A stretch of DNA of 64,000 bases. Source: an uncultured Thermodesulfobacteriota bacterium (lineage in GTDB: Bacteria > Desulfobacterota > S145-22). The stretch covers positions 2,041 through 66,040 of the forward strand of contig CAZOBB010000068.1 of the NCBI GenBank assembly GCA_964577975.1, given 5' to 3'. A model generated the notes under the pieces. It had not been told where the DNA came from. It did not search any database and was given only the letters and a program-made list of their open reading frames with translations. Of the stretch, positions 8,601 through 44,719 are shown piece after piece; position 1 is the stretch's first letter, and each line of letters begins with the position of its first letter. Position numbers and translations under genes: made by a program.

Positions 8601-9843
8601 GGTGAAACTTGCGGATGGAGCAAAGGTCAAGGAAAAGCAACTTATCGCCGAATGGGATCCTTACAACACACCGGTCGTGACGGAAGTGTCGGGAAAGGTC
8701 AAATTTGGCGATGTGATCGAAGGCTTTACGATGCAGGAGCAGGTGGATGAGATCACGGGGCTTTCGACGAAGGTTATCGTGGAGTCCCGAGATCCTTCCC
8801 TGAGACCGAGGATCTCCATCAAGGATGAAAAAGGTAGAACGCAGAAACTGCCAGGTAGCTCCAGCATGGCCCGGTACCTCTTGCCGGTGGGTGCGATTAT
8901 TCAGGTTGCCGAAGGTGATGAGGTGCAGGCGGGAGATGTCATCGTCAAGATTCCAAGGGAAACCACGAAGACAAAGGACATCACCGGCGGATTGCCACGG
9001 GTTGTGGAATTGTTCGAAGCGAGAAAGCCGAAAGAGAGTGCCGTTATTAGCGAGATCGATGGGATTGTTTCCATTGGAAAGGATATCAAGGGGAAGCGAA
9101 CGGTTATTGTGACCCCCGAGGTCGGGGAGCCGAAAGAGTATGTGATTCCGAAGGGGAAGCATATCAGTGTTCATTCGGGTGATTTTATCAAGGCTGGAGA
9201 GGCATTGATGGATGGCCCCATCAATCCGCACGATATCCTGCGAGTGAAGGGGGAGAAGGAACTGGCAAAATATCTGGTGGACGAGGTTCAGGAAGTCTAC
9301 CGACTCCAAGGCGTCGAGATAAACGATAAGCACATTGAGGTCATTGTGCGTCAGATGCTCAAACGGGTGAAGATAAAAGAATCGGGAGACACGAAATTTC
9401 TGATTGATGACGTGGTGGAAAAACATGTTTTTGAAGAAGAGAACGAGCGTGTGTTGCAGGAAGGGGGGACACCTGCCGTGGCGGAACCGCTTCTGATGGG
9501 CATAACGAAAGCGGCGTTGATTACGGATAGCTTTATTTCGGCGGCCTCCTTTCAAGAAACGACAAAGGTTCTCACGGGGGCGAGTATCGCCGGAAAGATA
9601 GATTACTTGAAAGGCTTGAAGGAAAACGTAGTGGTGGGAAGGTTGATTCCGGCTGGTACGGGTTTTCGGAAGTATCAGGAACTGGAGGTAGTAACGGAGA
9701 CGGGAGAGCGGGAGTTTGGACCAAAATTTGATGCAACCCGAGAGTTGGAAGCGTTTGATGCCTTTGTGGCGACACCCCCTTCGCCGGTGAGTAGTGGCGG
9801 AGATGGCTCGACGGACAGCATAACGCCCATTGAGTTTAGATGA
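5629..9843 (+). CDS. rpoC: DNA-directed RNA polymerase subunit beta'
   Basis: TTG start 3 nt after the rpoB stop; 1404 aa; zinc-finger block [23 protein letters not shown]; catalytic motif [14 protein letters not shown]. Confidence 0.97.
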
Positions 9844-22713: not shown

Positions 22714-22782
22714 TAAGAGCGGTATCTTATTTTTGTCTTTGGCAGGTTTTGACATATAAAAGAAGGGTGATAGAATCGATTT

Positions 22783-24258
22783 ATGCGACTGGATCGTAGA
22801 AAAGAAGGTATAGAAGAACAACCAGAGAATTTAAAAAGGATTCCTTTCATTTTCACTATGGCCGGGTTGGCGGTAGGTCTTTTCCTCGTGCTTATGGCTT
22901 ATGTCATCCAATATGTTGCAGGGCCTCCCATTGCCAATGCCAATGGTTCTTTCTGGGATACACTCAAATCCCTTCATGCCGCCAATCCCATCCTTTTTCT
23001 TATGGATAATACCCCATGGGTGTTGGCGACGGTGGCGGCCGTCATGGGGAAAAGGCAAAAAGAGAAGGCGATCTATCTATGGAAGCTCAAAGGGATGTTG
23101 AGACGACGGAGTGCAGAGTTGCGCTCCATTCGGAGCCGTTATACCAAGCTGTTTGAAGGTGTCAATGAGTGTCTGTTCATCACCACCCATGAAGGGGAGA
23201 TCATCGACATCAACCAGGCAGGAATTACCCTTTTCAAGATGGAGGAATTGGTTGGGGAAAAGGGCAAGAACAAGGGAGCGATTCGGGAAATTTTAAGGGA
23301 AAAGGGTGTGAGTGCCAAGACTTTTTATGCCAGTGAGGAGGATGGGGCCCGCTTGATAGAAGAATTGGAGAAGAAGGGAATTGTTTCCAATTATCAGATA
23401 CGAATGAAGCGTTTCAATGGAGAGATATTCGAGGCCCTTTTTACGATGTCGGTGAAAACGGACGATGGAGGGGGGAAGCTTTTTTTTGGGCGAATTATTG
23501 ATCTGAGTTCTGTGAAACGGGCGGAGCTGCTATTGGCGAAGGCGAATCTGGAATTGGAGAGAAAAAATCGGGAGCTGATGGAGGCGTTTTCGGAGCTTCA
23601 GGTCTTGAAGGTACGGTATGAAAAGCGCAGTATCGAGCTTGAGAGGGCAAATAGGGAACTTCATCGTTTGAACAGGTTGCTGGCAGACATGGCGATTACG
23701 GATGGATTGACGGGGCTTTATAATCATCGCCATTTTAGGGGGCTTTTAAAGAGGGAATGGGAAAGGGCCAATAGAGAAAAGACAAATTTTTGCGTCATGA
23801 TGATTGATATCGATTATTTTAAAGCCTTTAATGATACGTGGGGGCATCAGTTTGGAGATGAGATACTTAAGACCGTCGCGTATACCATTAAACGTCAAAT
23901 GAGAAGCTATGATGTCGTGGCGAGGTACGGAGGAGAAGAATTTTGTGTTATCCTGCCGGGCACGGATTTGGAAACCTGTTATACGATTGCGCAGCGTATT
24001 CGTGAGGCGGTCGAAGACAAAATTCTCCTGTCTGGCCCGGAAGAGAAGAAAGAAAAACTTACCGTAAGTATAGGTGTCACTATTTTCCTTCCTCAAGAAG
24101 GAGACCGCCGCACATCCGATCAGATTCTTCAAGATGCGGATGTAGCCCTTTATCGTGCAAAGAGCAAGGGACGAAACAGGGTTGAGATGCATCGAAGAGA
24201 TTTGTCGGCGGAACGAGGGTACCTTTCCTTTTCATTGAGAGGAAGTAATGGGGGATGA
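22783..24258 (+). CDS. Membrane-anchored PAS-GGDEF diguanylate cyclase
   Basis: N-terminal TM helices; PAS-like segment; coiled coil; GGDEF domain with RYGGEEF active site and RxxD I-site-like motif; stop overlaps the next gene (ATGA). Confidence 0.85.
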   Translation: MRLDRRKEGIEEQPENLKRIPFIFTMAGLAVGLFLVLMAYVIQYVAGPPIANANGSFWDTLKSLHAANPILFLMDNTPWVLATVAAVMGKRQKEKAIYLWKLKGMLRRRSAELRSIRSRYTKLFEGVNECLFITTHEGEIIDINQAGITLFKMEELVGEKGKNKGAIREILREKGVSAKTFYASEEDGARLIEELEKKGIVSNYQIRMKRFNGEIFEALFTMSVKTDDGGGKLFFGRIIDLSSVKRAELLLAKANLELERKNRELMEAFSELQVLKVRYEKRSIELERANRELHRLNRLLADMAITDGLTGLYNHRHFRGLLKREWERANREKTNFCVMMIDIDYFKAFNDTWGHQFGDEILKTVAYTIKRQMRSYDVVARYGGEEFCVILPGTDLETCYTIAQRIREAVEDKILLSGPEEKKEKLTVSIGVTIFLPQEGDRRTSDQILQDADVALYRAKSKGRNRVEMHRRDLSAERGYLSFSLRGSNGG

Positions 24259-24944
24259 TGGCGGGAATCCTTTTGGCCTCTGGCCTATCACGACGATTCG
24301 GCTCTCAGAAGCTACTTTTTTCGCCGGGAGGGGGAAAAACCTTATTCGAGCAGGTTCTTTCCAATCATTTGAGATCGGGGTTGGATCCGTTGGTGGTGGT
24401 TGTATCGGAAGGTATGCTCGACAACATGAAAAATGGAAAGATGATTGGAATTACCGTGCATGAGAGGGGAGAGACAAACGAGTCGGAAGAGGGGAAATGG
24501 TTGGTTCTTGCCACCCCGTGGGGGAGAGGCCGATTGGTGGTGAACGAAGACCCGGAGAGAGGAATGGCTCGTTCTCTTCAAGAGGGGTTGTCCGTGTTGT
24601 CGGAAGAGGAAAAGGAAGAAGGTGTCTTGATCTCCCTCGCCGATATGCCAGGGATAACCCCTTCGGTGATAGAACGGGTGGTGACGGAATACCGACGAAG
24701 GAACGCAAAAATTCTCGTTCCAACATATCGCGGACAGATTGGGCATCCCGTTGTGGTCCATGAGCCTACGTTTCGGAAGGAGATAGCGGAGATTGAAGGG
24801 GACGTGGGCTTGCGCCATCTTTTGCGACGCTTTTGGGAGGAAGTGGAAACGGTTCCATGGGGAGATCCCTCCGTGGTGATGGATATTGATACCCCCTCAG
24901 ACGTGGAAAAGGTTTTTGCCGAAGGAGGGTGGGAATGGCCGTAA
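24255..24944 (+). CDS. mocA: MobA-like NTP transferase, YgfJ/MocA family (molybdenum cofactor cytidylyltransferase-like accessory protein)
   Basis: N-terminal GILLASGLSRRFGSQKLL nucleotidyltransferase motif; about 229 aa with an internal insertion; ATGA-coupled to the upstream GGDEF gene; clustered with yqeB/yqeC homologues. Confidence 0.7.
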   Translation: MMAGILLASGLSRRFGSQKLLFSPGGGKTLFEQVLSNHLRSGLDPLVVVVSEGMLDNMKNGKMIGITVHERGETNESEEGKWLVLATPWGRGRLVVNEDPERGMARSLQEGLSVLSEEEKEEGVLISLADMPGITPSVIERVVTEYRRRNAKILVPTYRGQIGHPVVVHEPTFRKEIAEIEGDVGLRHLLRRFWEEVETVPWGDPSVVMDIDTPSDVEKVFAEGGWEWP

Positions 24945-25693
24945 TTGATGAATTGATTGACTATGGGATGAAGCTTGACACAGGTCTTCGGGTTCAAGAT
25001 GTACGGATCGGTCTTGGTTACACTGCTGTACAGATTGAGGGCGGTGAAGTGGGGCTGGCCTATACCTTTCGCGGGGAGGCGGGACATACCTGTACCGCCG
25101 TTAAAATGGCGGGAGAACTCGCGGGCAAACCGGTGGGGCACCTCCTTGCCTTTATGAAAGAGGGGGATGTCGTGTCCGCGGCCGTGGGATTGGCGACCTT
25201 CAACGCCCTTTTACAACGACGTCTTCCGACGCCGGAGGGAGAAGATTTCTTCCCCATTATCCAATTGCAAGCTGGGGAAACGGTGGGGATGGTAGGTTTT
25301 TTCGGACCCGTTATCCCACTCATCCGTAAGGCGAGATGCGAGCTCAGGATTTTCGAGAAGAATCTCGCGCGGGGAGAGGGATTGTTTTCTCCCGAGAAGA
25401 TTCCTCAAAAGCTTCCGGAATGCTCGGTGGTTATCCTTTCTGCCACGACACTTATTAATCGTACCTTCGAGGAGGTTGTGGCGTATACAAGAGAGGCGAG
25501 GCATGTTGTTTTATTGGGCCCTTCTACTCCCCTTGTGCCGGAGGTAATGGGACGCTATGGGGTTACGTTGCTTGCGGGAATGAAGATTGTCCGTCCTGCC
25601 GCTGTCTTACGAATTGTCAGTGAAGGCGGAGGGACTCAAAGGTTGAGGGGAACCGTGGAAAAAATGGTTGTCTCGTGTAAAAAAGCGGGGTAG
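24935..25693 (+). CDS. DUF4213-DUF364 protein (Rossmann-like, putative heavy-metal chelation domain)
   Basis: GGAGG RBS 6 nt upstream; N-terminal VRIGLGYTAVQIEGGEVGLAYTF (DUF4213-like); C-terminal ...VVILSATTLINRTFEEV...VVLLGPSTPLVPEV...GGGTQRL (DUF364-like). Called from remembered family signatures, no database search run. Confidence 0.55.
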   Translation: MAVIDELIDYGMKLDTGLRVQDVRIGLGYTAVQIEGGEVGLAYTFRGEAGHTCTAVKMAGELAGKPVGHLLAFMKEGDVVSAAVGLATFNALLQRRLPTPEGEDFFPIIQLQAGETVGMVGFFGPVIPLIRKARCELRIFEKNLARGEGLFSPEKIPQKLPECSVVILSATTLINRTFEEVVAYTREARHVVLLGPSTPLVPEVMGRYGVTLLAGMKIVRPAAVLRIVSEGGGTQRLRGTVEKMVVSCKKAG

Positions 25694-25730
25694 TTTCAGG
25701 AATGTTCAAAGTGATAGAGAGAAAGACGGG

Positions 25731-26759
25731 ATGAAAAAGTTACCCATTGAAGAGGCCATCGGCAAACCATTGGCCAACGATATGACGCAAATTATTCCGG
25801 GTAAGGTGAAGGGGCCGGCCTTCAAACGGGGCCATATCTTGCGGGAAGAGGACATCCCACGGCTCAAAGATATGGGAAAAGCCCATGTGTATGTCCTTGA
25901 TCCCGATAAAGGGTACATCCACGAGGATGACGCGGCGATTGCTTTGTCCAATGCCTATGGAGGTGAAGAGTTCGAGCGGGTGGGACCCAGCGAAGGGCGG
26001 ATCAACCTCAAGGCCAAGTTCCGGGGCCTCTTGAAGATAAACCTTGATCTTTTGACATTTATCAATGCGTCGGGTGAAATCATCTGTTCCACGATTCATC
26101 AGCACACCGTCTGTGACGAGGGAGTGATTGTGGCCGCGACCCGTATCATCCCCGTGGCCATGGATGAAGAGGAGTTCAAGCGAGTTTTGGGTCGTGTGAA
26201 GACGGAAGGACCACTTCTGAGGCTGCTTCCTTTCGTAAGGAAACGCGTGGGTGTGGTTGTCACGGGAGAAGAGGTTTTTTCAGGTCGCATCCCTGACAGT
26301 TCCAAAAAGATTCTTTCTCCGAAGATTGAGGCCTTGGGAGGACGCATCGTCGCCCATGCGGTGTGCCCGGACGATGCGGAAGTTATTGGAGAAACGATTA
26401 CGAGGATGGTGCGTGGGGCCGCGTGCGATCTTATCATCACAACGGGCGGCCTTTCGGTAGATCCTGACGATGTCACCTTGGAGGGTATTGAAAAGAGTGG
26501 GGCACGGGTGGTTTCTTATGGCTCACCTATCCTTCCCGGTGCCATGTTTGCCTGCGCTTACCTGGGAAAGGTTCCGATCCTCGGCGTGCCGGCGGCGGTT
26601 TTCTATTTCAAAGCCACGGTCCTTGATATCTTCCTGCCGCGGGCCATGGCGGATGACCCCATTACCCGTGATGATGTCGTGGCCCTGGGGCACGGGGGGT
26701 TATGCCTCAACTGCAAGGTTTGTACCTATCCCGTTTGCCCGTTTGGAAAAGGGGTGTGA
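25731..26759 (+). CDS. Molybdopterin-binding protein (MoeA/MogA/CinA-type MoCF-biosynthesis domain) with C-terminal Cys-rich tail
   Basis: MoCF_biosynth signature (RVGVVVTGEEVFSGRIPDSS...DLIITTGGLSVDPDDVT); C-terminal CLNCKVCTYPVCPFGKG (C-x2-C-x2-C-x4-C). Confidence 0.65.
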   Translation: MKKLPIEEAIGKPLANDMTQIIPGKVKGPAFKRGHILREEDIPRLKDMGKAHVYVLDPDKGYIHEDDAAIALSNAYGGEEFERVGPSEGRINLKAKFRGLLKINLDLLTFINASGEIICSTIHQHTVCDEGVIVAATRIIPVAMDEEEFKRVLGRVKTEGPLLRLLPFVRKRVGVVVTGEEVFSGRIPDSSKKILSPKIEALGGRIVAHAVCPDDAEVIGETITRMVRGAACDLIITTGGLSVDPDDVTLEGIEKSGARVVSYGSPILPGAMFACAYLGKVPILGVPAAVFYFKATVLDIFLPRAMADDPITRDDVVALGHGGLCLNCKVCTYPVCPFGKGV

Positions 26760-26761
26760 CC

Positions 26762-27487
26762 ATGGGAGAGATTTTGACACATGTTCTTGAGGCGTTCCGA
26801 GAGGTGATGACACCGCATTTTCGTCTTGATGAGCGAGTTTCTGTCATAGCCCGTCCCCTCACGGCGGAAGAGGCTATCGGACATCCCGAACACGACGACT
26901 ACCCCCTTCTGAAAGGGAAGGAACGGATGATGGAGGCCCATTTCAGAGGTACGCCGGGTCAAGCCTATACCGACCAGGTTGGGAATTTCGAGGGAACTTT
27001 AGGAGATGTGCTGGCGCTTTCTCTTGATTCCAACTACCGTCGAGCCGTGTTGGTTGCCACGATCAACGCCGTGCTTCGCCATCTGGGTGTCATCGAAAAA
27101 AGCTGTCATTGCAAAGATGAGGATCCGGTAATATGCGCGCCAAAACTCCCGGGGGTACTCGCCGCTTTTGGCCCCCAGCGCGTGGGTATGATCGGCCACC
27201 AGCCTAGGCTGTTGGAAGTTGTTTCGAAGCGCTTCCAAGTCCGAATATGTGATCGGGATCCGGATCAGGTCTCCCGGCAAAAATCTGGCGTGACGGTTGA
27301 ACCACCGGAGGCGTGGCCGGATATTGTTTCGTGGTGCGATCTTATTCTTGCCACGGGGACGACCTTGGTGAATGATACGATTGATCATTTTGTGGTATCT
27401 GACAAGCCAACGGTCTTTTACGGAATAACCATTAGTGGCGCAGCCAAACTGCTCGATCTGAATCATTTCTGTCCTTTGGGAAGATGA
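26762..27487 (+). CDS. Second DUF364-like paralog (Rossmann-like putative metal-chelation domain) with a Cys/His cluster
   Basis: C-terminal VGMIGHQPRLLEV...DLILATGTTLVNDTIDHF...VFYGITISGAAKLL parallels the DUF364 part of 24935..25693; SCHCKDEDPVIC cluster; N-terminal part diverges from DUF4213. Confidence 0.5.
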   Translation: MGEILTHVLEAFREVMTPHFRLDERVSVIARPLTAEEAIGHPEHDDYPLLKGKERMMEAHFRGTPGQAYTDQVGNFEGTLGDVLALSLDSNYRRAVLVATINAVLRHLGVIEKSCHCKDEDPVICAPKLPGVLAAFGPQRVGMIGHQPRLLEVVSKRFQVRICDRDPDQVSRQKSGVTVEPPEAWPDIVSWCDLILATGTTLVNDTIDHFVVSDKPTVFYGITISGAAKLLDLNHFCPLGR

Positions 27488-28284
27488 AACCACTCGATTT
27501 AAAAATCTTGATTCGTGGGGCGGGAGAAATGGCAAGCGGGGTGGCATACCGTTTGTACCAGAGCCATTTCTCGATTCTCATGACGGAGATTCCGTCTCCC
27601 CTCTCCATTCGTCGTGCGGTCTGTTTTTCAGAGGCGGTATATGAAGGCGAAACGGAAGTGGAAGGAGTGAAAGCCGTCCGGATTGGGAAGACGGAAGAGA
27701 TAGAAACCGTGTGGCGCCACAGGAAGATACCCGTTCTTGTTGATCCGGATTTGACTGTAAGGAATAGGGTCTCCTTCCACGTCGTCGTAGACGCGGCCAT
27801 GGCGAAACGAAATCTTGGTACGTTCAAGGATTTTGCCCCTCTCGTTATAGGTTTGGGTCCAGGCTTCACGGCGGGCAGAGATGTGGATTGCGTCATAGAA
27901 ACGAATCGAGGGCATCATTTGGCTCGGGTTGTCAGAGAAGGAATGGCAGAGCCTGACACGGGAATTCCAGGAAGTACTCTTGGGTACACGGTGGAACGTG
28001 TTCTGCGCGCCCCGTCTGAGGGGATTTTTCGATCGGTCAAGGTTATTGGAGACCACATAGCCGCGGGAGAGACGGTGGGATGGGTGGGTGAAACCCCTAT
28101 GATTTCCCAGATTGAGGGCGTGCTTCGAGGAATCTTGCGGGATGGCGTGTCCGTTAGCAAAGGGATGAAGTCGGGGGACGTGGATCCGAGAGGGCAACGG
28201 ATCAACTGTTTTACCATTTCCGACAAAGCGCGAGCGGTTGGAGGGGGAGTCCTCGAGGCAATCCTTCACCGCTTCAACGAGTAG
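27484..28284 (+). CDS. yqeB: YqeB-family (XdhC-like Rossmann) selenium-dependent molybdenum hydroxylase system protein
   Basis: ATGA overlap with the upstream gene; N-terminal LKILIRGAGEMASGVAYRL XdhC/CoxI-type Rossmann motif; about 266 aa, consistent with the YqeB family. Confidence 0.65.
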   Translation: MKPLDLKILIRGAGEMASGVAYRLYQSHFSILMTEIPSPLSIRRAVCFSEAVYEGETEVEGVKAVRIGKTEEIETVWRHRKIPVLVDPDLTVRNRVSFHVVVDAAMAKRNLGTFKDFAPLVIGLGPGFTAGRDVDCVIETNRGHHLARVVREGMAEPDTGIPGSTLGYTVERVLRAPSEGIFRSVKVIGDHIAAGETVGWVGETPMISQIEGVLRGILRDGVSVSKGMKSGDVDPRGQRINCFTISDKARAVGGGVLEAILHRFNE

Positions 28285-28310: not shown

Positions 28311-29114
28311 GTGGGCGCGCCGGACTCTGCGAAGGTCCTATCGGTCGAAGATCTAATTACCCAACTTTTCCAGAAGCGAAAAGTAAATATTGCGTTGACG
28401 GGAGGCGGAGGAAAGACAACGTTCCTTGGGGTTTTGGGACGAGCGTTCGCGTCACGGGGCACACCGGTTTTATTGACAACAACCACCAAGGTTCAAAATC
28501 CATTTCCGATAGAGGTGGATCGCTTTTTCGTGTCAACGGATGCAAAGGAATTGAAGGGGCTCGTTTTGGGGGCATGGCGGCCGGGAATTCTCGGCATGGC
28601 GGTGGCAAGACCCTATGGGGATCATAAATGGGAGGGAGTATCATCCGAATGGATCGACGAACTCTTCAGCACCGTGCGAGAGGGAGCCATTTTAAACGAG
28701 GCGGACGGGGCTTTCCGCTTGCCCATTAAAGCGCCGGCGAGTCACGAACCGGTCATTCCCGCTTCTACGACGCACGTGCTACCTGTCTTGGGGCTGACGG
28801 CCATTGGGGCCCCCCTCGATGAAGCCCATGCCTTTCGGCCGCGCTTGATTGCCGATATAACGGGTCTTGCTCTGGGAGAACCTATGGATGAAGCAGCCCT
28901 GGCGCGTCTGATACTCCATCCCCGGGGATTGGCGAAAGATGCGCCCCAAGATGCGGAGATTGTTCCATTCCTGAATCAGGCGGACGACGGACGCCGTCGG
29001 GAAATGGGTTATCGGATCGCCGAGCGTGTCCTTTCGGCTTCCTTATCGGTGAAAACGGTGCTGATAGGCACATTAAATCCCTTCGTGCGTTTCGAGATTG
29101 TGAAACGCCCCTGA
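28311..29114 (+). CDS. yqeC: YqeC-family probable selenium-dependent hydroxylase accessory protein
   Basis: KVNIALTGGGGKTTFLGVL P-loop-like glycine-rich motif near the N-terminus; about 267 aa; pairing with yqeB is the classic signature of this family. Confidence 0.65.
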   Translation: MGAPDSAKVLSVEDLITQLFQKRKVNIALTGGGGKTTFLGVLGRAFASRGTPVLLTTTTKVQNPFPIEVDRFFVSTDAKELKGLVLGAWRPGILGMAVARPYGDHKWEGVSSEWIDELFSTVREGAILNEADGAFRLPIKAPASHEPVIPASTTHVLPVLGLTAIGAPLDEAHAFRPRLIADITGLALGEPMDEAALARLILHPRGLAKDAPQDAEIVPFLNQADDGRRREMGYRIAERVLSASLSVKTVLIGTLNPFVRFEIVKRP

Positions 29115-29138: not shown

Positions 29139-29729
29139 TTAAGAGGCTTCGGTAAAGAGGACGGCGAGAATCTTCGCGGGGGTGTCGCCTGCGCAGGCGA
29201 CACGGTGAGGAAGTTTGGAGTCGTAGTAGATGGAATCACCCGGTGAGAGGGTGTCCTTGAAATCTCCGAGCACCACTTCCATTTCCCCCTCCAGAACGTA
29301 GATAAATTCTTCGCCACTGTGAGAGGAGAGTTTTTCGTGTTTCACGGTAGCGGGTTCCAACGTGACAATGAAGGGTTCCATCTTCCGGTTCTTCTTGTCA
29401 TACCCGAGCGATTCGTAGGTGTATCCGTAATTGACGCCTTCCTTGGAGGCGAAGCGAGAAATGAGCTTTCTCTCGTTCTTTCGAACGATGGAGTAGGAGT
29501 GTCCTTTCTTCTCACCAAAGATTTTACTCAAGGGAACCTCCAAGGCATTGGCGATTTGGATGAGCGTGCCGAGGGAAGGAGAGACAAGGTGGTTTTCAAT
29601 TTGAGAGATGAGGGCCGAGGAGTAGCCCGTTTTGTCCGCTAAATCCTTGAGGCTCAACTTCTTTTCCTCTCGAACCTTTTTGATTCTTTCTCCAACTTTT
29701 GTTAACGCGACCTGGTCCGTTTTCTCCAT
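29139..29729 (-). CDS. XRE-family HTH plus cupin-domain transcriptional regulator
   Basis: N-terminal HTH_XRE (LTKVGERIKKVREEKKLSLKDLADKTGYSSALISQIEN); C-terminal cupin (EEFIYVLEGEMEVVLGDFKDTLSPGDSIYYDSKLPHRV); 12 nt downstream of the OFOR gamma gene on the same strand. Confidence 0.8.
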   Translation of the reverse strand: MEKTDQVALTKVGERIKKVREEKKLSLKDLADKTGYSSALISQIENHLVSPSLGTLIQIANALEVPLSKIFGEKKGHSYSIVRKNERKLISRFASKEGVNYGYTYESLGYDKKNRKMEPFIVTLEPATVKHEKLSSHSGEEFIYVLEGEMEVVLGDFKDTLSPGDSIYYDSKLPHRVACAGDTPAKILAVLFTEAS

Positions 29730-29741
29730 TTTTCCCTCCCA

Positions 29742-30299
29742 TCATGGGGTATTGGCGGTTTTGACCTGTTGGGCGCCCAGTTTTATGGCTTGGACATTTT
29801 GGGGGATGAATCGAGCATTCCTTTCCGAAATGACCTTGGATAGAGAATTGATCAGTGCTTCTTGGGAGACGACGCGGGTTATTTCCACGTAAGCGCCGAT
29901 GAGGATCATGTTGGCGAGTCTCGCGTTTCCCATTTCGGTAGCGAGATCATTGGCGGCGATAGGATAGACGTGGATATCTTTTCTCGTTTGTTGTTCAAAA
30001 GGGACGAGAGAGGTGTTGAAAAGGAGGTTTCCTCCTGGCTTGATCCACGATTCGAATTTCTTCAGCGAAGGGAGATTCATGACGATGGCCGCATCGGGCT
30101 TGCCAACGATAGGAGAGCCAATGGGGCCTTCGTCTGAGATAACCACAGTGCAATTGGCGGTTCCGCCTCGCATTTCGACCCCGTAAGCCGGCATATAGGT
30201 GACTTCTTTTTCTTCTTCGAGGGCGGCGAAGGCTAGCATGTTTCCGATGAGAAGGATACCTTGACCCCCGAATCCCGCCATAATGACTGAACTTTTCAT
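29742..30299 (-). CDS. 2-oxoacid:ferredoxin oxidoreductase, gamma subunit
   Basis: 185 aa; POR/KOR gamma-type N-terminus [23 protein letters not shown]. Confidence 0.85.
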
Positions 30300-30320
30300 G
30301 ATCTCGATCCTTTGCTTATG

Positions 30321-31079
30321 TTAGAGGACGTCTGCTGCCTTGCGTTCCTTGAAGATGCCCAACGGGAAGTAAGGAATCATCTCTTCTTCGACACGTTTCA
30401 TGGAGTCGATAGGATTGAGACCCCAGTTGGTAGGGCAGGCGGAAAGGACTTCCACGAACGTGAATCCCATTTCATCCCTTTGAAACTGGAACGCCTTCTC
30501 GATTGCTTTCTTGGCCAGATTGATGTTTTTGGGAGATGTAAAGGCTACCCGGGCCGCGAAGGCCGTGCCTTCCAGCGTGGCGAGGATTTCCGTCATACGG
30601 ATAGGGTACCCATCCTGCATGAAATCTCGGCCGTAAGGGCTCGTCGTGGTCTTTTGCCCGAGAAGAGTGGTAGGAGCCAACTGTCCTCCCGTCATGCCAT
30701 AGACCGTATTGTTGATGAAGATAATCGTGATGTTTTCTCCTCGATTGGCCGTGTGAATCGTTTCCGCGATGCCGATGGAGGCTAAATCACCGTCCCCTTG
30801 GTAACTGAAAACGATCTTGTCTTTCTGGGCGCGTTTTACACCCGTAGCTACGGCCGCGGCTCTTCCGTGGGGGGCTTCGATGACGTCAACGTCGAAATAG
30901 TCGTAAAGGAAGACGGAACACCCCACCGACGCCACGCCGATGGTTTTTTCCCGAAGGTTGAATTTATCGATTGCCTCTGCCACCATGCGGTGGGCGATGC
31001 CATGGTGACAGCCGGGACAGAAGTGAAAGGGAGTTTCTTTTAAGGACTTCGGCCGTTCGAAGATCTTTTTCTCACTCAT
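30321..31079 (-). CDS. 2-oxoacid:ferredoxin oxidoreductase, beta subunit (TPP-binding)
   Basis: Start taken at MSEKKIF, 8 nt overlap with the alpha stop; CPGCHHG motif; TPP-binding GDG...N motif (QGDGDLASIGIAETIHTANRGENITIIFINN). Confidence 0.85.
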   Translation of the reverse strand: MSEKKIFERPKSLKETPFHFCPGCHHGIAHRMVAEAIDKFNLREKTIGVASVGCSVFLYDYFDVDVIEAPHGRAAAVATGVKRAQKDKIVFSYQGDGDLASIGIAETIHTANRGENITIIFINNTVYGMTGGQLAPTTLLGQKTTTSPYGRDFMQDGYPIRMTEILATLEGTAFAARVAFTSPKNINLAKKAIEKAFQFQRDEMGFTFVEVLSACPTNWGLNPIDSMKRVEEEMIPYFPLGIFKERKAADVL

Positions 31080-32157
31080 GGTGTGTGTCTCTCTTTCGGG
31101 ATTTTGGATAGGTTTGTTGGATCTTTTCAAAGATTTCTTCCGGCGTGGGGAGTGAGCCAGGAGGTTGACCGTAGAAATCGACGGGTTTTCCCAACGCACA
31201 GATCTTTACATCTTCCAGCATCTGGCCCGTATTCAGTTCCACGACGAGAAATGATTTTTTCTCCGCCATGGCTTTTAGTTGTGGTTCGGGAAAGGGGAAG
31301 AGGGTAATGGGGCGGAAAAGACCGACCTTGAGACCGGATTCCCTTGCCATCATGACGGATGTGCGGCAGATGCGCGCCGCGCTTCCGTAGGCCACCACCA
31401 CGAGATCGGCGTCGTCAGTCAAAAGGGCCTCATAGCGGACTTCTTCCCTTTTCATCCTTTCGTATTTTTCGTGGAGCTTCCAGTTGTGTCGTGTCAACTC
31501 TCCGTCTTTCAAATAGAGGGATTTGAGGATTCGTTGGGGGCGTCCCTTCGCCCCCGTAAGGGCCCATTCTTTGGGTGAGGGCTCCCTCCTTTTTGGGGGA
31601 GCCTTTTTCAAGGGTTCTTTCATTTGACCGATCATCGCGTCTCCGAGGATCATCACAGGATTTCTATACTTTTCCGCCAAATCGAAGGCAAGGATGGTAA
31701 GATCGTACAGTTCCTGTACAGAGTTGGGTGCCAAAACGAGGAGATGATAATCTCCGTGCCCTCCCCCTTTAACGGCCTGGAAATAGTCACCCTGGGAAGG
31801 GGCGATCCCTCCGAGTCCCGGCCCACTCCGCGACATATTGACGATGACGATGGGGATTTCGCTGCCCGCGATATACGAAAGGCCTTCCTGCATGAGGGAA
31901 ATACCGGGGCTAGAAGAGGAAGTCATGGCACGGACTCCCGTTGCCGCTGCGCCCATCAGCATGTTGATGGCGGCCACCTCGCTTTCCGCTTGGACGAATT
32001 CACCACCAATCCTTGGTAAGTGATAGGAAAGGTATTCCGGGATGTCGCTTTGAGGGGTGATGGGATATCCAAAATAGTAGAGACATCCCGCGTCAATCGC
32101 TCCCATGGCGACGGCTTCATTTCCCTTGACAAAAAGGCGTTCTTCGCTCATTTCCAC
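31072..32157 (-). CDS. 2-oxoacid:ferredoxin oxidoreductase, alpha subunit
   Basis: 361 aa; POR/KOR alpha N-terminal domain (FVKGNEAVAMGAIDAGCLYYFGYPITPQSDI). Confidence 0.85.
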   Translation of the reverse strand: MEMSEERLFVKGNEAVAMGAIDAGCLYYFGYPITPQSDIPEYLSYHLPRIGGEFVQAESEVAAINMLMGAAATGVRAMTSSSSPGISLMQEGLSYIAGSEIPIVIVNMSRSGPGLGGIAPSQGDYFQAVKGGGHGDYHLLVLAPNSVQELYDLTILAFDLAEKYRNPVMILGDAMIGQMKEPLKKAPPKRREPSPKEWALTGAKGRPQRILKSLYLKDGELTRHNWKLHEKYERMKREEVRYEALLTDDADLVVVAYGSAARICRTSVMMARESGLKVGLFRPITLFPFPEPQLKAMAEKKSFLVVELNTGQMLEDVKICALGKPVDFYGQPPGSLPTPEEIFEKIQQTYPKSRKRDTHHE

Positions 32158-32351
32158 ACCTCAATGGCCACCTCGGGGCATATTTTAGCGCAGAGGGCAC
32201 ATCCTTTACATGATCCGTTGTCTTCAAAGACGGCGTAAAAATATCCTGTTTCGTTGATCTTGTCGCCGATCTTGATCAGCTTTTCCGGACACAGGATGGT
32301 GCAGAGGGCACATCCTTTACACAAATTTTCGTCGATTTTTATCCTGGCCAA
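32148..32351 (-). CDS. 2-oxoacid:ferredoxin oxidoreductase, delta subunit (2x[4Fe-4S] ferredoxin)
   Basis: 67 aa; two CxxCxxCxxxCP motifs (CKGCALCTILCP and CKGCALCAKICP); overlaps the alpha start by 10 nt. Confidence 0.8.
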   Translation of the reverse strand: MARIKIDENLCKGCALCTILCPEKLIKIGDKINETGYFYAVFEDNGSCKGCALCAKICPEVAIEVWK

Positions 32352-32616
32352 TGTTTTTTGCTCCTTCAGATGGTCTAAACTTTCTACGTAAATTCCGTGC
32401 GATTGTCAAGAAGGCATTATTATTTGGATTTTTTGGATGTGATGGTTTGCCTTGCTAAAATCATAAAAATTGAGTAACTTAATTATCACTATAAAAGTAA
32501 CGCTTGTTTTTTGGTTATATTATATTCTGTAGTATATGGTATGTCTTAATTGTTTTCAGGTGTTTGGAATCCTAGCATCCGAAAGAGGGCGCAAAAGTCG
32601 AGTAAAAGGGGGTGGC

Positions 32617-35600
32617 ATGGGAGAGTATCAGGATTTGAAAAAAGAAATTCGCCGTCTTAAGAGAAAACTTGTCAGTTGTGAGAAAAGGTTGGAAAAAGTG
32701 AGACGTGAGGGGAAGGCCCTGCAATCGCTGATACGTAATTCGGCGCTTGGGATCGTGGTGATTGATAAGGATCATATAGTCCAATCGTGCAATCGTGTCT
32801 TTGAGAAGCTTTTTCAGTACAGGAAATCGGAGATTGTGGGGAAAAATTTGGATGAGGTTGTTGCAAAAGGAGAGGCGATTGCGGAGGCGAGAGGTTATAC
32901 GGATAGGACATTGAAGGGGAAATCGGTACGTGGATTGGGGATGCGCTTTCGAAAAGATGGAACATCCATGTTCGTGGAATTTTTCGCAGTTCCGGCGATT
33001 GTGGATGGTGAAGTTGTGGGGGCCTACGGCATCTACCAGGATGTTTCGGAAAGAGAGGAACTGGCATTGGCTTTAAAAGAGAGTGAAGAGCGATATCGAA
33101 AACTGGTGGATTTATCTCCCTTGGCGATCGGGGTTTTCGATCTGGAGGGAAGAATTTTGTTTGGGAATGATGCGGCGGCAAAAGTGTTTGGGATTGAAGA
33201 CGTACGGGCATTTTTAGGAAAGAAAATTTTTGATTTATTGGATCCCACTATTTTCGATTTGATCCGCCCGAGGTTCAACGGGTTTAGAAAGGGAATCTTG
33301 CAGCCCAAGGTTGAGAAGAAGATCAAGAGCATTGACGGGAGGATAAAGCATATCGAAGTTGTTTCGAGTCTTTTGAGTTATGATGGAAGGCCCGCTATTT
33401 TGGCTGTCTTTCAAGACATCACGGAACGGATATACCTCCGACGGGCTCTCCAGGAGAATGAAATGCGTTTGAAACGGGTGTTGGAGGTGTCTCCGTTGGG
33501 AATGGGATTGGTTAAAAATAGGATGATGCAGTGGCATAATCGGGCGATGTCGAGGATGCTTGGATATGAACCGGGTGAGTTGCGGGGAAAGGAGGCCCGA
33601 ATTATTTATCCAAACGAGAAAGAATATCGACGTTCGGGAAAGATGATGGCATCGTTGGGAAAAGACCGAAGAGTTGTAGAGTTTGATTCGACATGGGTTC
33701 GGAAAAATGGAGAGGTTTTTGATTGCCATCTTTGGTATTCGTTGCTGGATGAGGATGAATCGGGAACAACAGTGCTGGCGATTGCGGAGGATGCCACGAA
33801 GCGGAAGGAAATGGAGCGGCGGCTTAGGGAAAGTGAAGAAAGATATCGGCTCTTGGTCAATTTTTCTCCTCTCCCGATTTGTGTTTTTGATAGAGAATAC
33901 CGAATCTTTTTCGGCAACCCGGCGGCTGTTCGATTAATAGAGGCGGAATCGGAAGAGGACTATGTGGGGAAGTCCTTGATGGATTTTATGGCTCCGGAAT
34001 TTCGCCCCATTGCCCAAAAAAGGATTGCCAGCCTACTTCAGGGTGATCGAAATCTACCTCCCATTATCTTTAAGGCGCTTACCCTGAAAGGGAATGAAAA
34101 GTTTGTGGAAGTTTATTCTATTCCCGTCGTTTTTGACGAGAAACGCTCGGTAATGTCGATATTTTTGGATGTAACGGAGAAGATAAAGACGGAAGAGAGA
34201 TTAAAGAGGGAGGAAGAAAGATACAGAAAACTTTATGGGGAGGCGAAGCGTCAGGAGGGGTTGTATCGTTCTTTGTTGGACTCATCCGCCGATGCCATTG
34301 TAATCTATGATTTGAAAGGCAATGTGGAATTCATAAGCCCTTCTTTTACCAAAATCTTTGGATGGACGTTTGATGAACTAAAGGGGAATCGGATCCCCTT
34401 TGTTCCGGAATCGGAGGTAGTGAGTTCCTTGCAAACCATTCATACCCTTCTTGAAACGGGTCAGCCTGTTCATGGTTTTGAAACGCGTCGTTTGACAAAG
34501 GATGGCAGGATCTTGGATGTGAGTATCAGTGCGTCTTGTTACAACGACCATGAAGGGAAAAGGCGCGGGATGCTGGTGGTGCTTCGGGATGTGACGGAAA
34601 GGAAGCGAGTCGAGATGAGGGTTCGAGAATCTGAAAAAAGATTCCGTGATCTTTATGATTCTGTTTCTGATCTGATTTACACACAGGATCTTAAGGGCCG
34701 TTTTCTCTCAGCCAACCGTGCCCTTGTGGATATCCTTGGAGTGACGCCGGAGGAGTGTATCGGAAAACCAACCTCCGATTTTATGAAAGAGGGGATGAAG
34801 CCAAGGTTTGAAAAAGAGTATTTGGAAGGAATCAAGAAAGAGGGCCACCATGAGGGGGTTGGAGTATATTTCTCCAAGGATGGGCGTAAGGTCTATCTCG
34901 AGTACCGAAGCACTTTGGTAAAAACCAAGGACGGAGTTCCCTATATCAGTGGGATTGCGCGAGACGTGACGGATCGGATCCGTGCGGATCGCCGGATCAA
35001 AAGGCTGAGGGAAGAGATGTTACAGGCGCAGAAAATGGAGGCCATCGGTACCCTAGCGGGAGGAATTGCGCATGATTTCAATAACCTTCTCATGGGTATC
35101 CAGGGTAATGTGTCCCTTTTGAAGATGCAGGCAGATCCTCAGAGCGAGGAGTATAAGAGGTTGAAAAGTATTGAGGAGTATATTCGAAGCGGTTCGGATC
35201 TGACCATGCAACTGCTCGGTTTCGCACGAGGCGGGAGATACGAGATAAAAGCTACGAACCTGAATGCCTTGATCGATAAAGAAGTAGAACTTTTTGGACG
35301 GACAAAGAAGGAGATCGAGATTCACGTGAAGCTCCAGGAGGATTTGTGGGCGGTGGAGGTGGATCAAGGTCAAATGGGGCAGGTCTTCTTGAATCTATTC
35401 GTGAATGCCTGGCAGGCCATGCCCAAAGGGGGGAGTATATTTGTCCAAACGGAAAATCTGATGTTGGAAAAGGGGCTCGAGAGTTATCCTACTCTGAAAC
35501 CGGGGAGATATGTCAAGATTGTCGTCGCCGATACGGGGGTGGGAATGGACAAGAAGACCTTGGAGCGGATTTTCGAGCCTTTTTTTACGACGAAAGAGAA

Positions 35601-36165
35601 AGGAAGGGGAACGGGATTGGGACTGGCGTCGGTGTATGGGATCATCAAGAATCACGGAGGAGTTATCGGGGTCGAGAGTGAAATAGGGCAAGGGACAAGT
35701 TTTACGATTTATCTTCCCGCGACGGAAAAAGTTATTTTTCAGCGAAAAGAGGAGACGAGAGACGAGGTGGTTTCGGGGAAGGGGAAAATATTATTGGTCG
35801 ATGATGAAGAAAGGATTCTCGATGTGGGTAAGCAGTTGCTGGAGACCCTTGGCTATGATGTTATTGCAACAAAAAGCGGGGAAGAGGCCCTTCGGATCTT
35901 TAAGAAAGAGAAGGGAGCATTTGACCTGGTTGTCTTGGATATGATTATGCCGGGAATGGGAGGGGCGGAAGTTTTTGATGCATTGAGGCGCTTGGATCCC
36001 AACATAAAGGTTTTGCTAGCCAGTGGTTATAGCTTGAGTGGTCAAGCCTCGAAGATTATGGAGAAAGGTTGCAATGGTTTTATTCAGAAGCCTTTTTCAA
36101 TGGAAAGACTTTCGAAGAAGATTCAAGAAGTGATGAGAGGAAGAAAAGAGGAAAAAACGCCTTAG
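32617..36165 (+). CDS. Multi-PAS hybrid sensor histidine kinase with C-terminal receiver domain
   Basis: About 1180 aa; at least six PAS/PAC-like repeats separated by ...SEERYRKL... linkers; HisKA (IAHDFNNLLMGI); HATPase (DTGVGMD...GTGLGLASV); REC domain (ILLVDDEE...VLDMIMPGMGG). Confidence 0.8.
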   Translation: MGEYQDLKKEIRRLKRKLVSCEKRLEKVRREGKALQSLIRNSALGIVVIDKDHIVQSCNRVFEKLFQYRKSEIVGKNLDEVVAKGEAIAEARGYTDRTLKGKSVRGLGMRFRKDGTSMFVEFFAVPAIVDGEVVGAYGIYQDVSEREELALALKESEERYRKLVDLSPLAIGVFDLEGRILFGNDAAAKVFGIEDVRAFLGKKIFDLLDPTIFDLIRPRFNGFRKGILQPKVEKKIKSIDGRIKHIEVVSSLLSYDGRPAILAVFQDITERIYLRRALQENEMRLKRVLEVSPLGMGLVKNRMMQWHNRAMSRMLGYEPGELRGKEARIIYPNEKEYRRSGKMMASLGKDRRVVEFDSTWVRKNGEVFDCHLWYSLLDEDESGTTVLAIAEDATKRKEMERRLRESEERYRLLVNFSPLPICVFDREYRIFFGNPAAVRLIEAESEEDYVGKSLMDFMAPEFRPIAQKRIASLLQGDRNLPPIIFKALTLKGNEKFVEVYSIPVVFDEKRSVMSIFLDVTEKIKTEERLKREEERYRKLYGEAKRQEGLYRSLLDSSADAIVIYDLKGNVEFISPSFTKIFGWTFDELKGNRIPFVPESEVVSSLQTIHTLLETGQPVHGFETRRLTKDGRILDVSISASCYNDHEGKRRGMLVVLRDVTERKRVEMRVRESEKRFRDLYDSVSDLIYTQDLKGRFLSANRALVDILGVTPEECIGKPTSDFMKEGMKPRFEKEYLEGIKKEGHHEGVGVYFSKDGRKVYLEYRSTLVKTKDGVPYISGIARDVTDRIRADRRIKRLREEMLQAQKMEAIGTLAGGIAHDFNNLLMGIQGNVSLLKMQADPQSEEYKRLKSIEEYIRSGSDLTMQLLGFARGGRYEIKATNLNALIDKEVELFGRTKKEIEIHVKLQEDLWAVEVDQGQMGQVFLNLFVNAWQAMPKGGSIFVQTENLMLEKGLESYPTLKPGRYVKIVVADTGVGMDKKTLERIFEPFFTTKEKGRGTGLGLASVYGIIKNHGGVIGVESEIGQGTSFTIYLPATEKVIFQRKEETRDEVVSGKGKILLVDDEERILDVGKQLLETLGYDVIATKSGEEALRIFKKEKGAFDLVVLDMIMPGMGGAEVFDALRRLDPNIKVLLASGYSLSGQASKIMEKGCNGFIQKPFSMERLSKKIQEVMRGRKEEKTP

Positions 36166-37388
36166 GGGATAGCTCGCCGCGCAAGATTTTCCACAGCTTT
36201 CATCACTGTTTTGATGTCCTCTTCCGTGTTGAAATAGCCTATGCTTATACGAATGGTTCCCTCAGGAAACGTGCCCAATGCTTTATGGGCGAGGGGGGCG
36301 CAGTGAAGGCCTGTTCTAACAAGAATATCGTACTTTGTGTTAAGCAAGGCTCCGGCTTCTGAAGGGAGGGGGCCGTCTTCCGTCCAGGCGAGATTGATGG
36401 CGCCGCATCCCCCCAGGGTTTGCTCTTCCCCCCCCGGAAGGAGGCTGTCGAAGGTGAGGGATACCGTCGCGGTTTGTTTGGCCGGGTCCAAGGGACCATA
36501 AAGGGTGACTCCCGAAAGGTCTCGGAGTCCTTTAAGAAGTAGGGTCAAAAGCTTTTGTTCATGGATGAGGATGGAGTCTATTCCAGTCTTGAGAATAAAA
36601 TCGACTCCCGCCCCAAGCCCCGCGATGCCTACGTTGTTCTGGGTTCCGCTTTCAAAAGCATCGGGGAGGAATTCGGGTTGCTCCAGGCTTTCGGAGAGGC
36701 TTCCCGTTCCTCCTCGTTTCAAGGGGCGTAGGGAGAGACCCTCTCGGAAGTAAAAACCACCCGTTCCTTGAGGTCCCATGAGTCCTTTGTGTCCCGTGAA
36801 TGTCAAGAAATCTATGCCGTCCTTCACCACGTCTATGGGAAAGTGCCCTGCTGTTTGGGCCGTATCGACGAGAAGGGGGATGTCTCCGGCGATATTCCGG
36901 ATGCTCTTAAGATCCTGGATGGTTCCACATACGTTGGAAGCGTGGTTGACAACGAGAAGCCGCGTTTTCCTTGTGAGGGCTTTTTTTAGGGCGTCCAGAT
37001 CAAGGATGCCTTGGGAATCACAGGGGACAATGTCATAAGTTATGATTCCCTTGTTTTTTAAATAAGTCAGAGGCCGGAGAACGGCATTGTGTTCCATCGC
37101 CGTGGCAACAACGTGGTCACCCTCCTCGAGAAAGCCGAGAAGAACGGTGTTGATGGCTTCCGTGATGTTGAGGGTAAAGACGATGCGCGAGGGATCGGCG
37201 ATATGGAAGAGTTTTGCCAAGCTTTCACGTGTCGAGCGGACGATTTTCTCGGCTTCCTGAGCCAGCGCATGTCCGGATCTCCCTGGGTTTGCTCCCACGT
37301 TGGTCATGAAATGAATCATGGCTTCAATGACTTCTGGTGGCTTCGGGAATGAGGTGGCGGCGTTGTCCAAATAGACGAGTTTTTTCAT
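36162..37388 (-). CDS. Class-V aminotransferase-fold PLP enzyme (cysteine desulfurase / selenocysteine lyase-like)
   Basis: 408 aa; N-terminus VYLDNAATSFPKP typical of NifS/SufS/CsdA; PLP-lysine region FLTFTGHKGLMGPQGTGGF. Confidence 0.8.
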   Translation of the reverse strand: MKKLVYLDNAATSFPKPPEVIEAMIHFMTNVGANPGRSGHALAQEAEKIVRSTRESLAKLFHIADPSRIVFTLNITEAINTVLLGFLEEGDHVVATAMEHNAVLRPLTYLKNKGIITYDIVPCDSQGILDLDALKKALTRKTRLLVVNHASNVCGTIQDLKSIRNIAGDIPLLVDTAQTAGHFPIDVVKDGIDFLTFTGHKGLMGPQGTGGFYFREGLSLRPLKRGGTGSLSESLEQPEFLPDAFESGTQNNVGIAGLGAGVDFILKTGIDSILIHEQKLLTLLLKGLRDLSGVTLYGPLDPAKQTATVSLTFDSLLPGGEEQTLGGCGAINLAWTEDGPLPSEAGALLNTKYDILVRTGLHCAPLAHKALGTFPEGTIRISIGYFNTEEDIKTVMKAVENLARRAIP

Positions 37389-44459: not shown

Positions 44460-44551
<92 letters not shown>

Positions 44552-44580
44552 TTTTCTATAAATGTGGATGGGTGGGGGGG

Positions 44581-44608
44581 TTCACATCCAACAAGGGTGT
44601 GATATAAT
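44581..44608 (+). promoter_or_regulatory. Candidate sigma-70 promoter for tRNA-Ser(GGA) / ffs
   Basis: TTCACA - 16 nt - TATAAT, 17 nt upstream of the tRNA 5' end. Confidence 0.45.
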
Positions 44609-44625
44609 GAGGTGATTTCGTGAAG

Positions 44626-44719
44626 GGAGAGATGTCCGAGCTGGCCGAAGGAGCACGATTGGAAATCGTGTGTACCCCCACAAGGGGTACCGAGGGTTCG
44701 AATCCCTCTCTCTCCGCCA
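44626..44719 (+). tRNA. tRNA-Ser (anticodon GGA), class II, encoded CCA
   Basis: Same acceptor and T arms as the first tRNA-Ser; anticodon stem-loop CACGA-TTGGAAA-TCGTG; long variable arm. Confidence 0.85.

Follow-up and report, generated by a model that had tools for sequence, protein, structure and literature searches.

We analysed a 64,000-nucleotide (nt) stretch of contig CAZOBB010000068.1 from an uncultured Thermodesulfobacteriota bacterium (hereafter the window), in which three consecutive + strand open reading frames (ORFs) encode proteins of 252, 342 and 241 amino acids (aa), here called DUF364-A, MoCF-Cys4 and DUF364-B. An independent public gene call on the identical contig lists the same three products at the same lengths. 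The trio had been singled out before by a sequence-only reading of this DNA, and its coordinates, strand and reading frames, as well as the two peptides quoted from it (CLNCKVCTYPVC and CHCKDEDPVIC), were all found as described. The flanking genes, which that reading did not cover, place the trio within a six-gene + strand operon in the order MocA-like, DUF364-A, MoCF-Cys4, DUF364-B, YqeB, YqeC (Table 1). On our best reading, the three proteins are candidate accessory pterin- and metal/chalcogen-handling proteins of molybdenum cofactor (Moco) maturation.

Both genes 3' of the trio scored above the curated NCBIfam cut-offs (YqeB, 359.3 bits versus 220 for TIGR03309; YqeC, 173.9 bits versus 73.05 for TIGR03172, with a further 120.8 bits for Pfam YqeC). 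From the PAS-GGDEF gene that precedes the MocA-like gene through to YqeB/YqeC, the successive junctions measure -4, -10, 37, 2, -4 and 26 nt, with DUF364-B starting 2 nt past the MoCF-Cys4 stop codon and overlapping the yqeB start by 4 nt. Haft & Self (2008, PMC2276186) proposed YqeB, YqeC and MocA/YgfJ as accessory proteins that mark selenium-dependent molybdenum hydroxylases, the enzymes behind the anaerobic breakdown of purines and urate by gut bacteria (bioRxiv 10.1101/2025.04.24.650524). The yqeB gene is needed for selenium-dependent purine use (PMC2276186, PMC11448449), and its deletion in C. difficile phenocopies loss of selD on xanthine and urate (PMC11448449). Of the routes by which selenium is incorporated, the one that makes it the labile ligand of molybdenum hydroxylases is, according to specialists, understood least (PMC11448449). 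Within the limited collection of literature that we searched, no paper linked DUF364 or a MoeA-like Cys4 protein to YqeB/YqeC.

Table 1. Features of the operon and of the gene preceding it, in window positions
Feature	Position	Strand	Evidence
PAS-GGDEF diguanylate cyclase gene, possibly first of the transcription unit	22783..24258	+	Pfam labels
MocA-like MobA-family nucleotidyltransferase, putative molybdenum cofactor cytidylyltransferase	24255..24944	+	Pfam NTP_transf_3, 102.6 bits
DUF364-A, canonical two-domain DUF4213 + DUF364 protein, 252 aa	24935..25693	+	Pfam, PDB sequence matches
MoCF-Cys4, 342 aa, MoeA-type domain + Cys4 tail	25731..26759	+	Pfam MoCF_biosynth, PDB profile, model
Cys4 tail CLNCKVCTYPVC, C-x2-C-x2-C-x4-C(P), C325/C328/C331/C336	26703..26738	+	Alignments
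DUF364-B, divergent full-length DUF364-fold paralogue, 241 aa	26762..27487	+	Pfam, BLASTP, Foldseek
DUF364-B loop CHCKDEDPVIC, C115-H116-C117...C125	27104..27136	+	Column counts
Cys237 of DUF364-B, third of the conserved Cys in the putative Cys3His site	27470..27472	+	102/105
YqeB, selenium-dependent molybdenum cofactor biosynthesis protein	27484..28284	+	NCBIfam TIGR03309
YqeC, selenium cofactor biosynthesis protein, P-loop GGGGKTT	28311..29114	+	NCBIfam TIGR03172, Pfam YqeC

MoCF-Cys4 and its cysteine tail

MoCF-Cys4 comprises three parts: residues 1-165, which match no sequence family, a MoeA-type molybdopterin-binding domain at about residues 170-310, and the Cys4 tail. The MoCF domain and the terminal C-x2-C-x2-C-x4-C motif named in the sequence-only reading were both recovered, the former as Pfam MoCF_biosynth (PF00994) at residues 174-300 with 79.7 bits. 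A profile search of the Protein Data Bank (PDB) returned matches for residues ~164-326 alone, to MoeA domain III, followed by MogA, MoaB and CinA. Alignment to P. horikoshii MoeA (1uz5) showed that the TGxE, xDD and GGxSxDxxD positions are retained, and G179, E181, D214, G239, G240, S242, D244, D246 and D247 of this domain are invariant in our conservation analysis (alignments A1 and A3; 51 aligned members with identities down to 48%).

Outside domain III, sequence comparison returned no trace of the other MoeA domains. MoeA_N (PF03453) was found in none of the 51 members at E ≤ 1, MoeA_C (PF03454) was detected neither in MoCF-Cys4 nor among the 51 members, and the chain ends ~40 residues past domain III. 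Similarly, a comparison with the MoeA-like ORF of locus L029 by hhalign aligned domain III and nothing else. The NCBIfam MoeA models gave MoCF-Cys4 about 30 bits against cut-offs of 440-560 (for NF007960, 30 versus 440). The protein also fell under the cut-offs for MogA/MoaB (NF006932, 27.5 bits versus 158; TIGR02667, 26.3 versus 222) and, at 342 aa with an extra N-terminal domain of 165 residues, it is not a stand-alone protein of that type. In an AlphaFold (AF2) model with an overall predicted local distance difference test (pLDDT) score of 84.8, the best whole-chain Foldseek matches were MoeA, Cnx1E and gephyrin-E, the long MoeA alignment reaching a template modelling (TM) score of 0.34; for the N-terminal 165 residues, Foldseek alone produced alignments to MoeA, long ones of low TM score. 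MoCF-Cys4 is thus a MoeA-type pterin binder by predicted function, yet it is not MoeA. The family numbers more than 4200 proteins at E ≤ 1e-10, which in public databases are named merely "molybdopterin-binding protein".

The tail, whose conservation in orthologues had been named as a check in the sequence-only reading, was present in all 75 full-length homologues from the 80 species-level genomes that we surveyed. Among the 51 aligned members, C325, C328, C331, C336 and P337 are invariant, as are G320, G322 and G323, and H321 is nearly so, giving a conserved GHGG before the Cys4 tail. The spacing C-x2-C-x2-C-x4-C-P is one residue away from that of the classical 4Fe-4S motif, C-x2-C-x2-C-x3-C-P. 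No Fer4-family match was obtained in MoCF-Cys4, and one of the 51 members gave a marginal LdpA_Fe-S-bd hit (E = 0.056). We treat the apparent ferredoxin likeness of the tail as only a lead.

The two DUF364 paralogues

DUF364-A has the DUF4213 plus DUF364 architecture that had been ascribed to it, with both Pfam domains above the gathering score (PF13938, 66.5 bits versus a cut-off of 23.5; PF04016, 140.9 versus 23). A sequence search of the PDB matched it to 3npg (1.6e-14) and 3l5o (1.2e-12). It carries no conserved Cys cluster and no counterpart of the Cys loop of DUF364-B, and orthologues occur in 13 related loci.

DUF364-B is more divergent. Pfam recognized a partial DUF364 domain (residues 139-223, profile positions 12-97 of 147, 47.6 bits versus a cut-off of 23), PF13938 was undetected at E ≤ 0.01, and a sequence-profile search of the PDB gave no match. 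The sequence-only reading had granted this protein only the C-terminal half of the architecture, a view that did not hold. BLASTP aligned the two paralogues from residues 34/50 to residues 186/215 (172 residues, 26% identity, E = 8e-7), spanning both domains. It was the fold search that found 3npg and 3l5o: they were the sole strong PDB matches of the AlphaFold model (pLDDT 86.4) in Foldseek, over 237-256 columns with E 4e-8 and a TM score of ~0.5. The N-terminal domain of DUF364-B is recognizable solely through BLASTP to DUF364-A and through the fold.

When 1.84 billion representatives were searched with a profile, 654 clusters were assigned to the DUF364-B subfamily, 160 of them at E ≤ 1e-30. 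Residue counts out of 105, based on 104 full-length representatives at 50% clustering, revealed C117 and C125 in every case, H116 in 103 and C237 in 102. In contrast, C115, the first Cys of the CHC sequence, was kept in four of 105 and is clade-specific, as are C163 and H44. Accordingly, of the "CHC...C cluster" initially described, H116, C117 and C125 stand as near-invariant and are joined by C237, whereas C115 drops out. Because these four residues are kept and C115 is not, the DUF364-B family signature is H-C-x7-C plus a C-terminal Cys, a putative Cys3His site. Judged by conservation, which goes well beyond chance, the Cys4 tail of MoCF-Cys4 and this putative His-Cys3 site are family-defining.

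DUF364-B also occurs fused to other domains, as NifU_N::DUF364-B (11 clusters, on contigs of up to 1 Mb), FmdE::DUF364-B and ABC_tran::DUF364-B. The NifU_N fusions come from Planctomycetota and others. Fused DUF364-B members were seen at positions 8001-9119 in both L082 and L083 and as proteins P0259, P0287, P0271 and P0368. Equivalents of H116, C117, C125 and C237 are retained in all DUF364-B fusions, and the H-C-x7-C signature also in divergent members. The NifU_N fusions suggest an input from sulfur-transfer machinery.

The sequence-only reading further held that DUF364 has no demonstrated function, which is outdated: the DUF364 protein Orf5, reported in 2026, converts (4''R)-4''-methyl-S-adenosylmethionine (methyl-SAM) into cis-methylazetidinecarboxylate and methylthioadenosine (MTA), with Tyr61 and Glu204 as catalytic residues (PMC12930334).

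Divergent DUF364-B members were seen in further settings. In L084, L085, L087 and L088 (~7000-9000), such a gene lies amid DUF134, DUF5320, NifX-like (Nitro_FeMo-Co), NifU_N and NifS genes, together with a metallo-beta-lactamase-fold protein and CbiA/ParA-type ATPases, two or three in number, that bear Fer4 domains; MinD/ParA-type iron-sulfur (Fe-S) ATPase genes are among the neighbours of divergent members. The DUF134/NifX-like/DUF364-B gene set looks like a metallocluster-assembly system that is so far uncharacterized. In L086 (2668-7732), genes for FdhD, a ParA-type ATPase and DUF364-B come after a NAD-linked formate dehydrogenase of the molybdenum/tungsten bis(pyranopterin guanine dinucleotide) type (Mo/W-bisPGD), and the subfamily therefore also accompanies a molybdoenzyme outside the xanthine dehydrogenase (XDH) family and its sulfurtransferase.

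Genomic context and candidate roles

To define the context of MoCF-Cys4, its alignment was scanned against one genome per GTDB species, yielding 80 loci, whose neighbouring ORFs were clustered and annotated by cluster representative. Co-occurrence with molybdopterin and selenium genes, the other check named in the sequence-only reading, was borne out: MocA-like genes were found at 38 of the 80 loci, YqeB at 32, YqeC at 29 and XdhC at 23. An ATP-binding cassette (ABC) ATPase nearest to WtpC/ModC occurred at 22 loci, DUF364-B at 20 and DUF364-A at 13, followed by the FAD, 2Fe-2S and MoCo-binding subunits of XDH-family enzymes (MoCoBD, FAD_binding_5, Fer2_2; 10-11 loci) and by an SsuA-type binding protein and a TauC-type permease (10 each). 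A ModE-N-like regulator and MoxR/VWA genes were also recurrent.

YqeB lies directly 3' of MoCF-Cys4 (start within 300 nt) at 20 out of 80 loci, and DUF364-B (start within 500 nt) at 19, six of which run on into YqeB. When counting the 65 loci with room 3' of MoCF-Cys4, 23 show one or another of these arrangements. Since YqeB is present in ~8% of genomes (PMC5322559), chance adjacency is negligible. MoCF-Cys4/YqeB is a conserved gene pair in several phyla.

The exact gene order of the window is limited to Thermodesulfobacteriota metagenome-assembled genomes (L001-L007, 77-86% identity). Dehalococcoidia loci (L021, L024, L027) instead read MoCF-Cys4, MocA, ModE-N, ABC, DUF364-B, DUF364-A, YqeB, YqeC, XdhC, and Syntrophaceae loci (L039, L069, L075) read ABC, DUF364-B, MOSC, ..., DUF364-A, ..., FeoB, MoCF-Cys4. 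The trio thus occurs together in three gene orders, spread over at least three phyla, each time with Moco-related genes. Locus L065 of Natroniella acetigena unites YqeB, XdhC, YqeC, MocA and MoCF-Cys4 with XDH subunits.

Conserved motifs and gene neighbourhoods place all three proteins, as predicted partners, in the maturation of metallocofactors and, more narrowly, of the molybdenum cofactor, with MoCF-Cys4 tied most closely to YqeB. With moderate confidence, we favour the reading that the trio are accessory parts of a YqeB/YqeC-type operon for molybdenum cofactor maturation, the type linked to selenium-dependent molybdenum hydroxylases, whose client XDH-family enzyme would be encoded elsewhere in the genome. 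Of the earlier proposal of a Mo, W or Se insertion or trafficking sub-complex, the cofactor role is upheld by the MocA, YqeB/YqeC, XdhC and XDH context, while nothing in our data speaks for a physical sub-complex.

Several observations weigh against this reading. The best NCBIfam match of the MocA-like protein, TIGR03310 (MocA/YgfJ), scored 123.3 bits, under the cut-off of 186.45. The 64-kb window has neither an XDH-family enzyme nor selD, a tRNA-Sec or a Moco riboswitch, no SelD-like ORF or motif was found in the window or the 80 loci, and a search of both for the GCGCK-type selD motif returned noise only. Moreover, 41 of the 80 loci have neither YqeB nor YqeC within 10 kb, and some of these adjoin FeoB and enoyl-CoA hydratase genes. 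Because of this and of the divergent DUF364-B genes in Fe-S/NifX-like or FdhD contexts, the selenium specificity is in doubt. In E. coli, a well-studied bacterium with YqeB/YqeC, the locus is not known to have such partners, so the trio would not be universal in the pathway. On the structural side, the N-terminal half of MoCF-Cys4 has no sequence similarity to MoeA_N by Pfam or hhalign, and the Cys4 tail has a pLDDT below 50 in the metal-free model. Finally, the whole case for the trio is comparative.

The MocA-like protein measures 229 aa against a model of 188 positions and has an apparent insertion of ~30-40 residues near residues 55-95 (MKNGKMIGITVHERGETNESEEGKW...), which may be the reason for its sub-threshold TIGR03310 score.

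Among the alternatives, a selenium-independent supply of molybdenum or tungsten is possible, and in our view rather doubtful. Here, the DUF364 pair would buffer or hand over imported molybdate or tungstate, MoCF-Cys4 would be a specialized paralogue of the MoeA-type insertase, and adjacency to YqeB/YqeC would reflect no more than a shared client cofactor. Such a role is consistent with the Dehalococcoidia loci, where an ABC substrate-binding protein (SBP), permease and WtpC/ModC-like ATPase are followed by DUF364-B and DUF364-A and accompanied by the ModE-N-like regulator, as well as with the ABC_tran::DUF364-B fusion and the ModA-like SBP_bac_11 binding protein that adjoins DUF364-B in L085. 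In the same line, published work found DUF364 genes next to molybdate or tungstate transporters and cofit with nifH (PMC2954201; bioRxiv 10.1101/2024.03.05.583561), and half of the MoCF-Cys4 loci, the 41 mentioned above, do without YqeB and YqeC. However, no transporter is contained in the operon of the window or in its near relatives, DUF364-B sits between MoCF-Cys4 and YqeB with junctions of 2 and -4 nt, and the NifU_N fusions and FdhD adjacency favour sulfur or Fe-S chemistry over oxyanion binding. The SBP and permease of the importer in related loci are, in addition, of the SsuA/TauC type and not ModA/ModB: its components scored best as an SBP and permease of the SsuA/TauC/SaoP type and as a WtpC-like ATPase, in no case reaching the cut-off.

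It is improbable that the DUF364 proteins are instead SAM-using enzymes like Orf5 that alter the cofactor or produce a small molecule able to bind metal, with DUF364-B possibly a non-canonical (Dph2-like) radical-SAM protein. Orf5, the sole characterized member, breaks methyl-SAM at its C4''-S bond, yielding an azetidine amino acid (PMC12930334), S-adenosylhomocysteine was docked into the interdomain cleft in the DUF364 structure paper from the structural genomics centre JCSG, and three invariant Cys together with the NifU_N fusions would fit a site-differentiated [4Fe-4S] cluster. Neither the window nor the loci examined, however, contain a neighbouring B12-radical-SAM methylase, nonribosomal peptide synthetase or other biosynthetic-cluster gene, and the invariant His hints at a fourth ligand, an unusual feature for a radical-SAM cluster. 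Equally hard to credit is that the Cys motifs merely hold structural zinc in three proteins with separate housekeeping roles, clustered by lineage-specific operon drift with no common mechanism: structural zinc is typically held by motifs such as Cys4 and Cys3His, the tail is short and free of a Fer4 domain by Pfam, and gene order varies between lineages, but the trio recurs in three unrelated gene orders across at least three phyla, always beside Moco-related genes, start and stop codons are coupled, and NifU_N, FmdE and an ABC ATPase occur as fusion partners.

Under the favoured reading, that of accessory proteins in a YqeB/YqeC-type operon, MoCF-Cys4 would bind molybdopterin (MPT) or Mo-MPT through its MoeA-type domain III and act as a pterin-holding or Mo-inserting partner that hands the cofactor to YqeB. 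Its ferredoxin-like Cys4 tail, standing in place of MoeA domain IV, could bind a metal or an Fe-S cluster and cap or service the cofactor site, while MocA would add CMP to give the molybdopterin cytosine dinucleotide (MCD) form. DUF364-B would hold its Cys3His metal or Fe-S site beside the nucleotide-binding cleft of the DUF364 fold and, probably as a hetero-oligomer with DUF364-A, deliver the metal, the terminal ligand (sulfur or selenium) or both; YqeB and YqeC would then complete the cofactor and insert it. Our confidence in the individual steps is much lower than in the general role. A bolder version, which we consider unlikely, is that MoCF-Cys4 and DUF364-A/B supply the missing chemistry of the labile-chalcogen step, in which DUF364-B, an Fe-S (Cys3His) protein loaded by NifU-type scaffolds, would act on pterin held by MoCF-Cys4 and either build a terminal ligand (sulfido or selenido) or a thio- or seleno-metal species, or transfer it to the cofactor, before YqeB/YqeC insertion. 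If true, this would represent an unrecognized branch of molybdenum cofactor maturation that is widespread in anaerobes.

The known markers of the selenium-ligand route are YqeB and YqeC only, neither of which has a mechanism. Together, the comparisons put forward a second role for the large DUF364 family, outside natural products, and provide targets for purification and knock-out: a predicted MoeA-like pterin binder paired with YqeB, a His-Cys3 DUF364 subfamily and a canonical DUF364 partner. They are candidates, nominated by comparative genomics, for a pathway whose mechanism is admittedly obscure.

Other features of the window and comparison with known systems

The stop codon of the PAS-GGDEF gene overlaps the start of the MocA-like gene by 4 nt (ATGA), and a promoter scan placed a strong sigma-70-like promoter before the PAS-GGDEF gene at 22749-22776 (11 of 12 matches, extended -10 TG). 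This neighbour, ~482 aa long, is also present 5' of MocA in L002-L004. The arrangement suggests that cyclic di-GMP signalling and cofactor maturation may share one transcript.

On the other side of the operon, a - strand regulator of the helix-turn-helix (HTH)-cupin type (PuuR-like), called from the Pfam and NCBIfam scan, is convergent with the operon and lies 24 nt past the yqeC stop codon. It belongs to the region 29139-32351, in which the ORFs following it are read as the gamma, beta, alpha and delta subunits of a 2-oxoacid:ferredoxin oxidoreductase from their translations and sizes only. Further along, 32536-36165 encodes a hybrid histidine kinase of 1209 aa that has multiple PAS domains and, at the C-terminus, a receiver domain, as judged from the translation only. 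At 36162-37388 on the - strand, 7 kb off the operon, lies a class V aminotransferase of the cysteine desulfurase or selenocysteine lyase type; enzymes of this kind are sulfur or selenium donors to cofactor pathways. Two tRNA-Ser genes (CGA and GGA) and a small signal recognition particle RNA occupy 44460-44846, directly 5' of dnaX, and a tRNA-Leu (GAG) gene lies at 47563-47648. The remainder of the window is housekeeping, including rplJ, rpoB, rpoC, tolB, pal, dnaB, eno, leuA, gap, pgk, tpi and others.

At the Syntrophaceae-type loci (L029, L031, L039, L042, L047, L058, L061, L069 and L075), FeoB is located 5' and enoyl-CoA hydratase 3' of MoCF-Cys4. The FeoB gene product, a neighbour of ~640 aa, had been considered as a tungsten BamB/AOR enzyme, an assignment that we rejected. 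A conserved protein of ~100 aa with the motif EILYGMTVHEMDLE...PPYYSMRLLPYI and no Pfam match is encoded 5' of MoCF-Cys4 at the same loci, and a MOSC-domain protein and GlpA/B-like flavoproteins are found nearby.

With regard to known systems, MoCF-Cys4 resembles MoeA, Cnx1E and gephyrin-E in its domain III motif positions (relative to 1uz5) and in its best whole-model Foldseek matches. It differs in having a 20-residue Cys4 tail in place of domain IV and in that neither MoeA_N nor MoeA_C is detectable in 51 members of its family. Both window paralogues share the enolase-N-like plus Rossmann-like fold of the DUF364 structures Dhaf4260 (3l5o) and PH1506 (3npg), whereas the H-C-x7-C loop insertion and C-terminal Cys of DUF364-B are missing in DUF364-A. 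The genomic link between DUF364 and Mo/W transport that was pointed out in 2010 is seen again in relatives. Unlike Orf5, the 4-methylazetidinecarboxylate synthase (PMC12930334), the window genes sit in a context of cofactor maturation and in no natural-product cluster.

XdhC, with NifS/IscS, and FdhD offer a functional parallel. The trio has no homology to these proteins, but likewise appears to consist of dedicated non-catalytic partners beside Mo enzymes or maturation genes, and XdhC and FdhD adjoin MoCF-Cys4 or DUF364-B in related loci. A further likeness is to the YqeB/YqeC/MocA(YgfJ) set (PMC2276186; Johnstone & Self 2024, PMC11448449). The sets described so far contain neither a MoeA-like Cys4 protein nor DUF364, whereas the window has three genes between MocA and YqeB and no client hydroxylase or selD near the operon. 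In common with those sets, YqeB and YqeC, both above cut-offs, stand with a MocA-like gene in one operon, to which related loci add XdhC and XDH-family subunits. The YqeB/YqeC/MocA operon type is known, and its three extra partners so far bear generic names only.

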